Source of the DNA: Reclinomonas americana ATCC 50394
Lineage: Eukaryota
Assembly: GCA_048213135.1 (NCBI GenBank)
Contig: PS015480.1
Span: forward strand, 1-61,390
Length of the DNA: 61,390 nt
Reading direction: 5' to 3'
Shown here: positions 23,545 through 61,122 of the stretch, one piece after another
How positions within the stretch are numbered: the stretch's first letter is position 1
Layout of the letters: each line of letters begins with the position of its first letter
Position numbers and translations under genes: made by a program
The notes under the pieces: model-generated
What the model was told of the DNA's origin: nothing
Seen by the model: the letters and a program-made list of their open reading frames with translations, nothing else
Databases searched by the model: none

Positions 23545-25102
23545 TCAGTAGGCCACGCACCCGCTGCATCGACGAAGGCGAATGTCGCGCCAGTCAGCAG
23601 CACGTGAGACGCAAAAGCATGCACACGACGCAACATCTTGTGACAGAAACTCCACGACAAGATATCCACTGTCTGCGTCACGTCGCCAACGGCCGCAGTG
23701 AACCCCACAAATCCGTATCCGTCCGAGTCCAGCACGCCCTGTTCGCGACCGCAGATGTCAGGCACTGTCAGGGCATGCACCGCAGTTGGAAGTGCACTCA
23801 CTCGCTGCTTCTTGTAGTGCTTGCTGTAGGCACTGTCAAGCGTGACTTCGGCCACGAGTGCCGGACGCGAGTTGTTGTCGATAAAGATGATCAGATTGCC
23901 GGGTCGCCCGAACAGCGACGGAATGTACCTGGTGGAGTGAATACGACAGGGTATTAAGGACACACATTACGAGGAGGGACAATGTGCGATGACTGTGTTA
24001 GCGCAGACTGTGGTGGTCGACAGCGTGGTGTCCCCTTCTCTCTCTCAGTCTCCTCTCTCTCTCTCTCACTCTGTCTCTCTCTCTCTCTCCCTCTCCTCCC
24101 TCTCCTCCCCCTCCTTCTCCCTCTCCCTCACCCTCCCTCCCTCTCCTCACCCTCCCTCCTTATCTCCCTCCTTCTCTCCCTCCTTCTCTCCTCTCCCTCA
24201 CCCTCCCTCCCTCCCCCTCCTTCTCCCTCTCCCTCACCCTCCCTCTCCTCCCTCCCTCTCTCCCTCCCTCCCCTCTCTCCCTTCCCTCTTTCCGTCCACT
24301 CACCATACTCGCACAGCATGCGTCTGCCCATCCGACAGGCTTGGGATGGACGACGAGTCGGCAATGGAGAAATCCGACGAATGATCGGCGCTCGCCGGCT
24401 GACCCTGCAGCGACGAGAATACTGGACGCGGCGGCAGGTCGGTTGAGCGCCCACAACAGAGACTGGAAGACAAACAACCACCATCACGTGTAGATCTCAC
24501 CTCCAATATGGTTGTCGGCGTACCCAACAAACTCGGTGGCATTGACCCACCACCGTTCGAGACCCTGTGACGTGCGAGACAAGAGTGAGGAAGAATAACA
24601 AAGCATGATGTTGGAACAACTGCGGGCACCACTCACCTGCTTCGGGTCGTACTGCTCGCTGTTGTACCAAGTGTCGAATTCCACAGCCACAATGTCAGAG
24701 AGACCCTCGAATCCCAGTCCACGACCAATGGCCTCGGTTGCCGCCGACGCCCACAAGGGTGCCACTCGGTCCGTCAACTGCACACCCTTGCCGAGCACCA
24801 GCGCGAACCCATCACCTCCGCCGCAGAAACTGCCAGAGTAGCAGCGGAGAGTGAGTGTCACTGCATGCCTGCTGAGCACCCGCGACCAAAAAAATCACTC
24901 ACCCATCAAGCTCGGAGCACAGTCCGAGTGCGGAGATGCGGAACTGGAAATTGATTTCAAAGCCGTCGCGCAGATACAAAGCGTCCGAGAGCCACACGTG
25001 TGAACGACGGAAGCGATCGGTGTCCTGGAGCACGGCGCCAGCCTTTTGTTGCACCAGTCTCATGACTCGACGCGGACGCGGCACAATGTCGTCGAATACA
25101 AA
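23545..25102 (-). other. Exons encoding the C-terminal legume (L-type) lectin domain
   Basis: Spliced motifs in order: GFEINFQF, GGDGFALVL, GLGFEG, VAVEFDTWYN...DP, NHIG, DGQTHAVRVWY, GFVGFTAAVG..TQTVDILSWSF. Confidence 0.88.
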
Positions 25103-28100
25103 CTGCGCGCAGCTGAGTCAGCTCATGCTGCATCAATTTGCCGCTGTGTGCGTCGCGTCACCTTTACCGCATCACTTCGTGAGCTCGCATCTGCCGAGGA
25201 CACCAACATGGGCTGCGTGCCGTCACGTCCGTCCACAAGCAAGCAGTTGCCGACAACCACGGCCGCCGCATCCGTGCTGGCCACCAGCGGATCAACCAGC
25301 GCACCGGCGGCATCGGAGCACTCAAAGTTTGCAAAATCCATTTCTGTCATTCGCATCGTTCAGCACTCTGCCCTCACGCAACACCCTTCTTCCTTCTCCA
25401 TCATTAGCAAACCGAGCCACACTTGCAGCTGGAACTGCGCGGCGCCAGACTTTTGCGGATACTGCACATCGGAAGTAACGCCAATCCAATAATCCGAGCA
25501 CCCGCCAGCACCGCACCCGCCTGCAAACAAGCATGCATACCAAGTTAGCTCGGAAGAAATCACAGAGTAGCGGGAGCAACAAGATGAAGCGCAGACCATC
25601 GACCGCAAACTGTTGGGTGGAGACAGAGACGCTCCAGATGGCACCAGCCCGCGACGCCAGTACAGCACCCGAGGACGAAGCAGTCGGTTGCGTGGCCGGC
25701 TGCACGACCACCTGGATCATGTCACCGAAGTTCATGTAATCAACGGTACGCACCGCGACGCGCATGGCAAAGTTTCTGCACAACAGAGCACACCAAATCA
25801 ACAACACGCACTAGAGACGTGTGACAGCAGAATAAAAGGGCACCTGTGCGGCGGAGCGATGCGATAGTAGGCGTACTGATTCGCGCGCACTTCTTCCAGC
25901 ACCTGCAACGCGTTCTCCCTCCACTTGTCGTACACTGGATATAGCGACACTGGGTCCTGTGATCATACAAACCCAATGTTCAGCCTGCGCTGCTCTCGAG
26001 TGTACACGCTGCGTCAATCCCACCTGGTCCTTGATCATATTCACAGAGCCGACGTGGGCCGTGTAAGCGGAGCCACAAGAGACGCCGTTTGTGGTGCAGT
26101 AACCACGCAGAGTCGACTGCGATAGCTTGTCCCAATCGCCCAGTACTCGAGCGCCAGTCGGTTGACACCTGCGGTGAACATGGCACACATGAGCGCAAGA
26201 CGGACCGAAACAGGACGAAGGCGACACAAAAAAGGAGAGCCGAGCGAGACACAAAGTAGAATATACGATGCAGTGCGGTGGTGCAAGCGTCGATAAAGGA
26301 ACGCACCACTGACAGCCCACTCCCGACAAGGACGCGTCGCCGGCACACGCTCCGGCTGCACTGGCCCCGGTACTGACGGCAGACAACGGGCTGCTGTACT
26401 GCGTGGGCCGCGAATTCACGTTGTAGAAGCCACACATGCCGATTATCAGAGGCCCATTCGGGCTGCTTATCGCCACCTGCACCCCGTTGTAACACAGGTA
26501 GACGGTTTGCTGCATGAACAGGAGCATGAGCAACACCACGTGGCGACAGGGGACACACGACTTGGACTTCAGCGCTCACCGCCGAGAGATTGTCTGGAGT
26601 GGTGCACACGGCATAGCTGACGCCTGCGGTGGACCAGGTGTCGGCTGTCGGGTCCGAGCCAACAGAGCACACCAAGGACCCATCGGCGCAGCTGACGACC
26701 GAGTCGCCCGCGGCAAAGGCAGAGGCACCGGTGAGCGTCAACAGGGACACAGAAAGCTCGGGCACAGTAAGCGGCTCGAACGAGTAGTCTGCACAGGCAG
26801 CTGTGAGCGGGGCGAAACACAAGAAGAGACGCAGTGTGGCGACGCGTGCGCAACTCAGAACGAGTGGTGTAGGTGGTCGCTGCGAATCACCGACACGACG
26901 CCATTGTGTGCCGACACTGGTCTCCACCACAAGCACTTGTGCACCGCAGCAGCCAACGTCGATAATGTCGCCGACACTGTATCCGAAGCCTCCACTGGCC
27001 ACACTCACCGCCGACACTGTGGTGTCGGAGTTCGCCGTCACCGTGATTCGCGCGCCGGCTCCACTGCCACCCGTCGCGCTGAGCGTGGACTGGCCGACAA
27101 TGTAGCCGAGTCCGGCGTTCCACAGTTGCACGGTGGCGATGCGGCCAGTTTGCGTGCCGCCCACCAAGACACACACCGTGTACGGTCCTGCGCAATGGGT
27201 GAAGGAGTCAGCACAGTGTGTGGTGCAAAGGAACTGGCCCTTGTGCATTCGTCTAACCGTTGCCACCCGACAGTGCTGGAGTGAACCGAAGCAAACTGTC
27301 CAGTGACAACACGAGATCGTCCGACACACCCGAGTGTGGACAATCCCAGCCAGTTGCCATTGTGGCGGCGTCTGCAGTGGTCAGACCACCAGTGATGGCG
27401 ATGGTCGGTGTGGTGCTCATCGTGACCAGCGGTGAGATGGCGTAGAAGGAGACTGCACAGGCAATGAGAACGCGCAGCGGTTGAGTGCCAACCACGTATG
27501 CATGCATCTTACCACTCGTAAGAGTCGGCGAGTTCAGTTGCGTCAGCGTAGACGGACCGGCGGCACTGAATCCCGAGTAGCACAACATGTACGACTGCGT
27601 AGTGGAGCCGACATCCACAGGGAGACCAGAGCCGCCCACCGTGATGATCATGCGCTGATTGGGTCCGCCGGTCTGCGGCGATGAGCTGTACACGTAGCTA
27701 TCCATGATGACGTAGCGTGGACCCGTCGAGGTAAACACATTGCTGGTGTCCGTGCAGGTGGCTGACACGTTCACAATGTAGCATGAGCAGGGGAGCAGCA
27801 GCAGGTGAGAAGCGTCAAACAGCATCACGAAACAGCGGGTGAACACGATGGTGTCGGTGGTACGCAGGCCCGTTCCGGTGCTGCTCACACACGAATAGGC
27901 GTTAGATTGTCCCCACGCAAGCAACAGAGGCGACAGTAGAGGTGAATTGTACGCAACAGAGTCAGCACAGCGCCAATGTCAGAGGCGGGAATACGGCGCG
28001 GGTGGAAATCCGTCAGCACGGCGCTCGCTGCGCGATGCATGCTTGAGAGGAGAATCCACTTTTCATATGTATGGTCCAAACTCACTAACGCACTCACCCA

Positions 28101-61100: not shown

Positions 61101-61122
61101 AGCGGTTCGAAGCGAATGCAGC
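23545..61122 (-). CDS. Giant multi-exon, probably extracellular protein: cadherin-like + ~15 NHL-in-FN3 modules + 4 free FN3-like domains + Cys/beta-rich region + L-type lectin (5' incomplete)
   Basis: Dozens of GT-AG junctions checked by hand restore a continuous frame and the NHL consensus (TLAG.G..G..DG.G..ARF..P.G.AVD....YVAD..N..IR). Module 46519..44642 has 9 exons, ~430 aa. Last exon 23563..23545 gives ...SWSFCHKI-GCVAY-stop. Not every junction was verified, and three gaps interrupt the gene. Confidence 0.82.
29223..29540 (-). other. Single exon encoding a fourth uninterrupted FN3/Ig-like domain
   Basis: ASVRTVAASSVTSTSAVLNGIINAGG...FEL...LTPQQTYYFRAVDT...GDILWFTTA, flanked by phase-1 introns. 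Confidence 0.8.
29605..36321 (-). repeat. Three further NHL-in-FN3 modules (M, N, O)
   Basis: M ~36321-33576 (two gaps), N 33497-31610, O 31541-29605; same start and end motifs as A-L. Confidence 0.78.
36088..37454 (-). other. 1367-nt exon containing three uninterrupted FN3/Ig-like domains (~37261-36322)
   Basis: ORF 36073..37485 shows three ~105-aa repeats ATTGSASSIT..SAVLTGT.N.HGG....SFE.....L.PGTTYY.RI.....QYG...F.T. Bounded by cag| at 37454 and |gtgcgt at 36088. Confidence 0.85.
37262..60615 (-). repeat. Intragenic tandem array of ~12 NHL-in-FN3 modules (A-L), ~1.8-2.1 kb genomic period
   Basis: A 60615-58861, B 58790-57003, C 56441-54480, D 54333-52358, E 52295-50426, F 50352-48497, G 48431-46591, H 46519-44642, I 44571-42769, J 42695-40711, K 40639-gap, L gap-~37262. 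Each fully visible module starts T.sa.s.t..sA.l.G..Na.G and ends ..L.p.TtYYfRa.....G...sF.T. Confidence 0.82.
41639..41759 (+). repeat. Compound (CT)n(CA)n microsatellite in an intron of the giant gene
   Basis: Directly visible dinucleotide runs. Confidence 0.95.
60814..61122 (-). other. Exon encoding a cadherin-like beta-sandwich
   Basis: VPLGTLHVDSTDKLEGDSTDLTWSVTGGADAASVRIANRKQLWL...LDVRVRATRNAVVVAEDVLSLQV resembles the cadherin repeat pattern (GT..a.D.D.G...TYS..GG.D...F.I....L......V.VRATD), followed by DADADAD. Judged by eye only. Confidence 0.5.

Follow-up and report, generated by a model that had tools for sequence, protein, structure and literature searches.

The window analysed here, 61,390 nucleotides of contig PS015480.1 from Reclinomonas americana ATCC 50394, carries on its minus strand one very large, intact, intron-rich eukaryotic gene; that it is a single gene is strongly supported by its anatomy. 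Truncated at its 5' end by the window edge, the gene extends from position 61122 down to an in-frame stop (TGA, 23420-23418). The exon chain comprises 155 exons and ~8,080 stop-free codons. At least ~215 further residues are concealed by two runs of N, 38678-39222 and 34118-34329. It is rather likely that this single intact gene encodes an extended, multivalent extracellular binder of at least ~8,080 residues with a lectin end. The predicted product consists, in order, of an N-terminal beta domain, 12 repeat units with an NHL propeller each, three FN3-like domains, three more units, one more FN3-like domain, ~830 residues of Cys-containing beta-rich sequence, and a C-terminal L-type lectin. 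An earlier sequence-only reading had extrapolated ~8,000+ residues in ~150+ exons, and the chained gene agrees with this.

The minus strand is indicated across the gene region by long open frames and by base skew. Open reading frames (ORFs) on this strand are short, and the frame shifts every 50-350 nt with GT...AG in between, which is the pattern expected for a gene rich in short introns. Exons were joined by an in-house dynamic-programming chainer, which combines codon log-odds, splice-site matrices, and an intron-length cost and was trained iteratively. Its first pass returned ~150 exons with ~8,100 codons and exposed a repeat of nine exon lengths. The chainer's score is 4,420 for the minus strand, against 859 for the plus strand and 5 for block-shuffled sequence. 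Note that this control is partly circular, as the minus strand also served to train the parameters, and that the chainer is designed to return one chain. It makes local errors: tiny exons of 6 or 7 nt, retained in-frame introns, fused exons, and missed GTTGCG donors. Every period of the repeat was curated by eye and by script, and problem spots were set by hand with the repeat as a guide. The 3' exons in the lectin region, where the chainer is unstable, were solved by enumerating frame-consistent sites.

The GC content of the gene-bearing eukaryotic DNA is ~57%, and the window contains nine runs of N. Three of these lie inside the gene (34118-34329, 34700-35345, and 38678-39222), and they alone part the curated exons into four chains, none of which has an in-frame stop: chain A (61122-39294, 97 exons, 4,801 aa), chain B (38677-35412, 11 exons, 849 aa), chain C (34676-34330, two exons, 93 aa), and chain D (34117-29223, 23 exons, 1,107 aa). 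Across each run the same unit resumes at the expected exon. The run at 38678-39222 conceals about five exons, that at 34700-35345 is intronic, and that at 34118-34329 lies within a blade. A C-terminal chain (23 exons, 1,336 aa) leads from 29540 to the TGA at 23420-23418. Its first exon is common with chain D, and the 22 further exons add ~1,230 aa. All 151 introns of the chain are GT-AG (129 of 129 curated introns and 22 of 22 in the C-terminal chain).

The 129 curated introns have a median length of 70 nt and range from 47 to 561 nt. The donor consensus is G|GTGCGT, GTTGCG, or GTGAGT (29, 18, and 12 of the 129 introns, respectively), and the acceptor consensus is GCAG| (68 of 129). Introns separating the repeat periods (47-82 nt, with one exception of 146 nt before 54785) are similar to introns within a period. 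Of the N-free introns, the three longest (561, 375, and 206 nt) are found within a unit, within the lectin domain, or separating tail exons. No period opens with an ATG exon or closes with a stop. The short introns between periods, the conserved phases, the placement of the longest introns, and ~8,080 codons without a stop together support a single gene. No ATG-initiated exon is visible upstream of 61122 up to the window end at 61390; instead a CT-rich tract there ends in an AG acceptor, so the gene extends past the window and its 5' end lies outside.

Two observations concern the introns themselves. (CT)n and other CT-rich low-complexity tracts are found at 61135-61390, ~56450-57000, and 24010-24300 and at many places in 1-22 kb; they occupy the longest introns (561 and 375 nt) and a large share of the DNA between genes. 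Stop-free introns that are in frame are also predicted, for example a 63-nt intron in the lectin (23739-23801) and a 69-nt intron (56059-55991). Retention of such introns would keep the frame, and this is also why automatic chaining fused exons.

The features of the gene are given below in the direction of transcription. Units 1 to 11 are based on hidden Markov model (HMM) matches, the exon table, and the stop-free chain, and units 12 to 15 on HMM matches and curated chains.

61135..61390, minus strand: CT-rich tract, interpreted as the 3' portion of an intron; a (CT)n/CT-rich run ending ...TTTTCAGTCGCAG|, with the AG acceptor at 61124-61123; the gene continues upstream beyond the window
60814..61122, minus strand: first visible exon, 309 nt, all-beta N-terminal domain of no recognised family; AG acceptor, GTGATG donor, in frame with the chain
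60682..60738, minus strand: linker exon, 57 nt, GT-AG bounded and in frame
58861..60615, minus strand: unit 1, an FN3-like A-B-C half, six NHL blades, and an E-F-G half in 9 exons
57003..58790, minus strand: unit 2
54477..56441, minus strand: unit 3, after a 561-nt CT-rich intron (57002-56442)
52358..54333, minus strand: unit 4
50426..52295, minus strand: unit 5
48497..50352, minus strand: unit 6
46591..48431, minus strand: unit 7
44639..46519, minus strand: unit 8
42769..44571, minus strand: unit 9, with blades 3-5 in one fused 519-nt exon (43868-43350)
40711..42695, minus strand: unit 10
39294..40639, minus strand: unit 11 up to blade 6, with blades 3-5 fused (39973-39494) and the last exons in the N run 38678-39222
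37264..38677, minus strand: unit 12 from the end of blade 2 on; its E-F-G half opens a 1,367-nt exon
36298..37263, minus strand: three complete FN3-like domains of ~105 aa each in the single 1,367-nt exon (37454-36088), from Pfam and translation
33576..36297, minus strand: unit 13, with N runs at 34700-35345 (intron) and 34118-34329 (blade 5) and an extra intron in the blade-4/5 exon
31610..33497, minus strand: unit 14
29605..31541, minus strand: unit 15, whose E-F-G half is a longer exon of 273 nt
29223..29540, minus strand: one complete FN3-like domain in a 318-nt exon after unit 15 (PF16656 E 0.0031)
25413..29016, minus strand: 15 exons for ~830 aa of beta-rich, Cys-containing sequence that belongs to no recognised family, from a GT-AG chain without stops; the exon model is less certain here
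23640..25343, minus strand: L-type (legume-type) lectin domain in seven exons (25343-25168, 25102-24903, 24829-24637, 24564-24501, 24421-24304, 23928-23802, and 23738 onward)
23418..23639, minus strand: 75-residue tail in open frame with the in-frame TGA 23420-23418

The core of the repeat is a block of nine exons of ~1,296 nt (~432 aa), with lengths of 46, 195, 227, 47, 111, 52, 182, 319, and 117 nt. Across the array these lengths vary (46, 195-207, 191-236, 41-50, 96-114, 52, 155-191, 280-346, and 87-144 nt), and they keep the same residues modulo 3 in every period. The 12 complete periods encode 421-454 aa, and their lengths are all divisible by three; the figures of ~9 exons and ~430 aa per module given in the sequence-only reading are thus borne out. 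HMMs of the exon types, built from four clean modules, give 349 domain matches at E < 1e-3; all fall on the minus strand, and the plus strand yields none. With overlaps removed, 15 copies of the blade-4/5 exon are found, 12 upstream and three downstream of the single 1,367-nt exon. Intron loss or gain within the repeat is seen in the fused exons of units 9 (43350-43868) and 11 (39494-39973) and in the extra 65-nt intron of unit 13 (34330-34676).

Minus-strand stop-to-stop ORFs of at least 70 aa (168 in number) were scanned with Pfam at E <= 0.01. NHL, a repeat of ~40-45 aa (PF01436), is found in 21 of them, mostly above its 20-bit cut-off, with a best score of 54.7 bits. An alignment of the 12 complete periods contains six '..D..G.(L/V)YV.D' blade cores per period, so the array encodes 15 six-bladed propellers. 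Compared with proteins of known structure, the exon encoding three blades matches the NHL domains of NHLRC2 (6g7w, E 7e-33) and SOQ1 (7djm, E 1e-31).

FN3-like models (PF16656, PF16655, and PF00041) match 10 of the 168 ORFs. They are strongest in the 1,367-nt exon, where PF16655 scores 54 bits (cut-off 30, E 2.6e-14), PF16656 40.5 bits (cut-off 30, E 4.3e-10), and PF00041 33.3 bits (cut-off 25, E 5.9e-8). A search of PDB sequences with this exon gave no match at E <= 0.001. The pieces of FN3-like sequence within the repeat units match the C-terminal part of the FN3-like profiles only, mostly below cut-off. In each period, the 195-nt exon holds the closing strand of blade 6 and then a piece with the signature ...TTYYYR...SF.T, and the first half of the 227-nt exon holds a piece of the form ...SATL.GT.NA.G....F... 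In the complete FN3-like domains of the 1,367-nt exon, the TTYYYR piece is the last part and the SATL piece the first part of one ~105-aa domain. An A-B-C half thus stands before every propeller, and an E-F-G half after it.

The array opens with an A-B-C half and closes with an E-F-G half, and ~315 aa separate the E-F-G half that follows propeller 12 from the A-B-C half that precedes propeller 13. The unit would be an FN3-like sandwich with a propeller inserted in one of its loops, because every half finds a partner only if pairing takes place across the propeller. The alternative, in which a circularly permuted sandwich lies between propellers, would leave four orphan halves. A bacterial-looking database homologue of 2,580 aa (P0210) has the same order of A-B-C half, propeller, and E-F-G half amid unrelated flanking domains, which supports the insertion. 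MAFFT alignments prepared for folding P0210 set fragments of the FN3 halves on propeller blades and were not used. The order of the whole protein described in the sequence-only reading (12 modules, three FN3 domains, three modules, one FN3 domain, a Cys-rich region, and a lectin) is reproduced by Pfam, the HMMs, and the curated chains.

The ends of the product belong to other kinds of domain. The first visible exon (61122-60814) had been called cadherin-like, and this is not upheld: it has no Pfam match at E <= 1, and its sole PDB match (E 1.7) is unrelated. A model of it by AlphaFold2 (AF2) is all-beta, with a predicted local distance difference test (pLDDT) score of 46.8, too poor for a fold search. 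The Cys-containing region has 25 Cys in 832 aa (3.0%) versus 52 in the 6,850 aa upstream (0.76%). It has no Pfam match at E <= 0.01, and a 207-aa C-terminal ORF piece has no usable match in the ESM Atlas. By eye alone, parts of the region have an IPT/TIG-like and PPC-like look.

The lectin domain occupies the last ~320 aa of the product. PF18483 matches the ORF at 24487-24894 (E 4.5e-7 / 8.2e-7, profile positions 48-116, 30.4 / 29.5 bits, cut-off 78.3), and PF00139 matches a later lectin exon (E 0.0016, profile positions 212-237, 18.5 bits, cut-off 26.3). The two matches are collinear across two exons. PDB legume lectins (7elv, 5t50, and 1gsl) align on the VAVEFDTW.N stretch of the lectin exon. 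The motifs GDGFALVL, AVEFDTWYNSEQYDP, NHIG, and ILSWSF follow in order, including an AVEFDTW..N..DP/NHIG motif. GDGFALVL, ..YDP, NHIG, and ILSWSF correspond to the elements by which legume lectins bind metal and sugar; conserved among these are the Asp of a ..DG.. loop, E.D..(F/W/Y).N...D, and a His. That this end of the protein binds glycan is plausible, because two collinear exons match L-type lectin models and the metal- and sugar-binding motif is present. The sequence-only reading had placed the stop at 23545, but the TGA there (23547-23545) does not share the frame of the last lectin exon, which stays open as far as the TGA at 23420-23418. A donor-like GTGCGT site at 23560 makes an alternative 3' exon possible.

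Residues encoded by 29223-61122 (6,850 in number) are of strongly biased composition: Ser, Ala, Thr, Gly, and Val together account for 60%, while Lys and Glu reach only 0.7% each. The units are 34-68% identical in protein, and neighbours are most alike (M7/M8 68%, M6/M7 60%, and M5/M6 57%). In these three pairs DNA identity is 66-69% in exons, 59-60% in introns, and 53-57% in shuffled introns. Because intron positions and phases are common to all periods, the array appears to have grown long ago by tandem duplication of the nine-exon block in an intron-bearing eukaryotic genome. Selection has probably kept the reading frame open since, with the introns diverging almost to background. The unit itself may have been acquired from bacteria by gene transfer before it gained introns.

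How such a protein might work can be outlined. It would enter the secretory pathway and act outside the cell, because all recognised domain types occur in secreted or surface (extracellular or luminal) proteins. That its closest relatives are large bacterial NHL/FN3 proteins also counts for an extracellular site. The FN3-like domains would form an extended stalk carrying 15 propeller heads. The propellers would give repeated but diverged ligand-binding faces, making the protein a long multivalent binder such as an adhesin, a coat, or a capture filament, and the Ca/Mn-type lectin at the C-terminal end would bind glycan. The adhesin, prey-capture, or coat filament proposed in the sequence-only reading accords with this architecture. 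A more specific picture is possible but tentative: a eukaryotic protein of more than 8,000 residues built of bacterial-type parts, in which a composite propeller-in-FN3 domain occurs 15 times along a stalk of ~100 nm with diversified heads and a far-end lectin, and which catches bacteria or prey or fixes the cell to surfaces.

Several points weigh against this picture of the gene and its product. The exon model is computational and partly guided by the repeat. The C-terminal 22 exons, for which the chainer was unstable, have homology support in the lectin alone, and the N runs may conceal more units or a break. The N-terminus lies beyond the window, which therefore does not cover a signal peptide, an anchor, or a start codon, and no convincing transmembrane or glycosylphosphatidylinositol (GPI) signal is seen in the C-terminal tail. 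The lectin scores fall below the curated whole-domain cut-offs, because single exons were scanned and the domain is split over exons. A single-sequence AF2 model of P0210 residues 992-1394 has a mean pLDDT of 65.9; the propeller core reaches ~80-94, and both FN3 flanks stay below 50. A hydrophobic window of 19 residues (Kyte-Doolittle 1.88) occurs within the Cys-containing region (~27420-27480, minus strand) and may represent either buried strands or a helix that spans a membrane. An unspliced intron was considered for this segment and discarded, since no GT..AG of usable size exists there. Finally, N-x-S/T sequons, called numerous in the sequence-only reading, are not in excess (67 seen versus 72 expected from composition); the Ser/Thr/Gly richness described alongside them holds.

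The closest competitor to an adhesion or capture role accepts the same gene and protein and gives them a structural one, as a building block of wall, scale, cyst, or matrix whose lectin fixes it to the cell's own polysaccharide. This is less probable, but it deserves to be taken seriously. The biased composition and the highly repetitive beta structure fit such a block, and a terminal lectin could bind self as well as foreign glycans. However, unit identities of 34-68% fit diversified binding faces at least equally well, and the sequence is compatible with adhesion, capture, or a structural coat. It is hardly likely that the propellers are instead catalytic, of the lactonase, lyase, or arylesterase type, so that the protein would be a lectin-tethered array of enzymes. 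Although Pfam Arylesterase gives weak co-matches (best E 4.6e-7) and some relatives are named 'sugar lactone lactonase YvrE' or 'streptogramin lyase', the Arylesterase matches lie beneath stronger NHL matches on the same stretches and the names were assigned automatically. Among solved structures, NHLRC2 and SOQ1 (by their NHL domains) and a teneurin-like protein come closest, rather than enzymes of these classes.

Other explanations question the gene itself. That the 38 kb hold two or more adjacent genes of the same family is improbable. In its favour, three N runs break the chain, the chainer was built for one chain, and the 5' part and the C-terminal part are without repeat support. Yet the introns between periods (47-82 nt, one of 146 nt) are in phase and too short for a terminator and a promoter, and neither an ATG-exon start nor a stop occurs at any period. 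Nor do the longest N-free introns offer a boundary, lying as they do within a unit, within the lectin domain, or between tail exons, and the same unit continues at the expected exon across each N run. Very improbable, too, is a decaying or unexpressed relic, or a shorter gene enlarged in part by an assembly artefact, for which the N runs and the many CT microsatellites might speak. Against it stand ~8,080 codons without stop or frameshift and the intactness of every canonical splice site; exons are conserved above introns, and the units differ by 32-66% in protein, which is not the mark of collapsed or duplicated reads. One intact gene for a long extracellular binder thus stays the favoured reading.

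If expressed as one chain, the product, encoded in ~155 exons, would rank with the largest proteins known from microbial eukaryotes. The gene is a clear example of a giant extracellular protein predicted to have been built by exon-block duplication with conserved phases. A propeller between FN3 halves, many per chain, is otherwise found in bacterial predictions only; here it is eukaryotic and joined to an L-type lectin. It also offers a handle on the ligands of multi-NHL giants, as the lectin and single units are expressible and testable. No long-standing question is opened by the finding.

The remainder of the window carries ankyrin-repeat genes. On the plus strand, 840-20306 holds five tandem copies of a two-part gene, each with a small ORF and a large ORF of ankyrin repeats (Pfam Ank matches). 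Directly downstream of the giant gene, on the minus strand, is a separate ankyrin-repeat ORF of 557 aa (20448-22118, PF12796 E 2e-37). The parts of the tandem gene are as follows.

840-1475, 4323-5597, 12232-12960, 16183-16926, and 19494-20306, plus strand: small ORFs, 51-74% identical
1567-4221, 6166-8238, 10070-12301, 13135-15708, and 17256-19106, plus strand: large ankyrin-repeat ORFs, 45-72% identical

Relatives of the propellers are numerous. The fused three-blade exon (173 aa) was searched against 1.84 billion representative proteins, and 80,240 proteins match at E <= 0.001. The top matches are very long proteins with many matched stretches: one of 4,013 aa has 41 three-blade stretches, and others have 6,643, 7,518, and 6,737 aa. 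Where a top relative has a name or a context, it appears to come from bacteria or metagenomes; a record from JGI bears the name 'mucin-19'. Six top relatives scanned with Pfam all consist of NHL arrays, to which Ig, PPC, cadherin, or P-domain is added in some. Bacterial contamination as a source of the gene itself was rejected because of its introns. Among the best 150 of the 80,240 relatives, identity to the three-blade exon is at most 53% in the best local alignment and 36-54% over all matched stretches, the window's own product and close orthologues are both missing, and FN3 halves around propellers occur in one protein, P0210. Two small proteins with NHL and FN3 (P0412 and P0421) have a propeller followed by whole FN3 domains, not the flanked unit. 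In a metagenome scan with the same exon, 257 of 601 matched stretches encode relatives (best identity 49%), and neither a close relative nor a cDNA-like contig is found.

Relatives of the three-FN3 exon are bacterial FN3-array proteins (Myxococcota, Polyangia, and others) with 30-39% identity. Among database proteins of 250-797 and 824-2,350 aa, the best identity to this exon is 39%, and neither the window's own product nor an orthologue is present; proteins longer than 2,350 aa were covered solely through the representative library. The lectin and the Cys-containing region have no match at E <= 1 among 421 stored proteins.

Known eukaryotic systems resemble the gene in part. Teneurins (PDB 9ifo and 9pt5; TEN_NHL) are likewise large extracellular proteins with an NHL propeller, but they have one propeller where this gene has 15. 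The TEN_NHL model matches one ORF weakly (best E 1e-6, 28.4 bits, cut-off 27.1), and the teneurin-like PDB match has E 5e-14. Teneurins are type II transmembrane proteins in which EGF repeats, a YD-repeat shell, and a C-terminal toxin-like domain accompany the propeller. Kinship with teneurins was rejected, as the scanned ORFs have no EGF, YD-shell, or toxin-like Pfam match and the propellers number 15, not one. A TRIM-NHL relative was likewise set aside. Such proteins are cytosolic and have a RING, a B-box, and a coiled coil ahead of one C-terminal propeller, whereas the window has no RING or B-box match, and FN3, Cys-rich, and lectin parts come after its NHL array. TRIM71 and Thin are weak PDB matches only (E ~1e-7). 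The closest solved structures by sequence are the six-bladed NHL domains of NHLRC2 and SOQ1 (6g7w, 6gc1, and 7djj-7djm; E 7e-33 to 5e-31). These proteins have one propeller each, joined to thioredoxin-like or other domains, and differ from the present product in having neither an FN3 array nor a lectin. The LRP family also places several six-bladed propellers in one extracellular chain, and LRP4 is a weak match (E 2e-7). LRP propellers, however, are of the YWTD type, a different repeat family; they are spaced by EGF modules and number at most ~8 per protein.

A functional analogy is found in the Periscope proteins of staphylococci (Aap, SasG, and Pls). In these proteins a repetitive stalk is reported to project a legume-lectin-like adhesin (PMC9999234). 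Their repeats are unrelated, the lectin is N-terminal, and the host is Gram-positive, and homology is not claimed. The nearest counterparts are giant multi-NHL proteins predicted from bacteria and metagenomes, which are unstudied: P0122 (4,013 aa), P0124 (6,643 aa), P0139 (7,518 aa, a 'LamG-like jellyroll fold domain-containing protein' of Terrimicrobiaceae), and P0210 (2,580 aa). They have the same blade type and many propellers per chain, together with Ig/FN3-like, PPC, cadherin, or jellyroll domains, and P0210 has the same unit of FN3 half, propeller, and FN3 half. While these are uninterrupted ORFs on prokaryote-like contigs, the gene in the window has 151 spliceosomal introns and 15 units.

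In the sequence-only reading no eukaryotic protein with ~15 NHL propellers and a lectin had been described. This stands for the stored matches and for the accessible portions of the literature, in which no paper was found that combines NHL repeats and an L-type lectin or reports a protist protein of this kind. The idea of many propellers in one chain is not new, since predicted bacterial and metagenome proteins commonly carry many NHL propellers. What is new, and absent from the libraries and literature searched, is the eukaryotic form in 155 exons with 15 flanked-propeller units and a lectin end.

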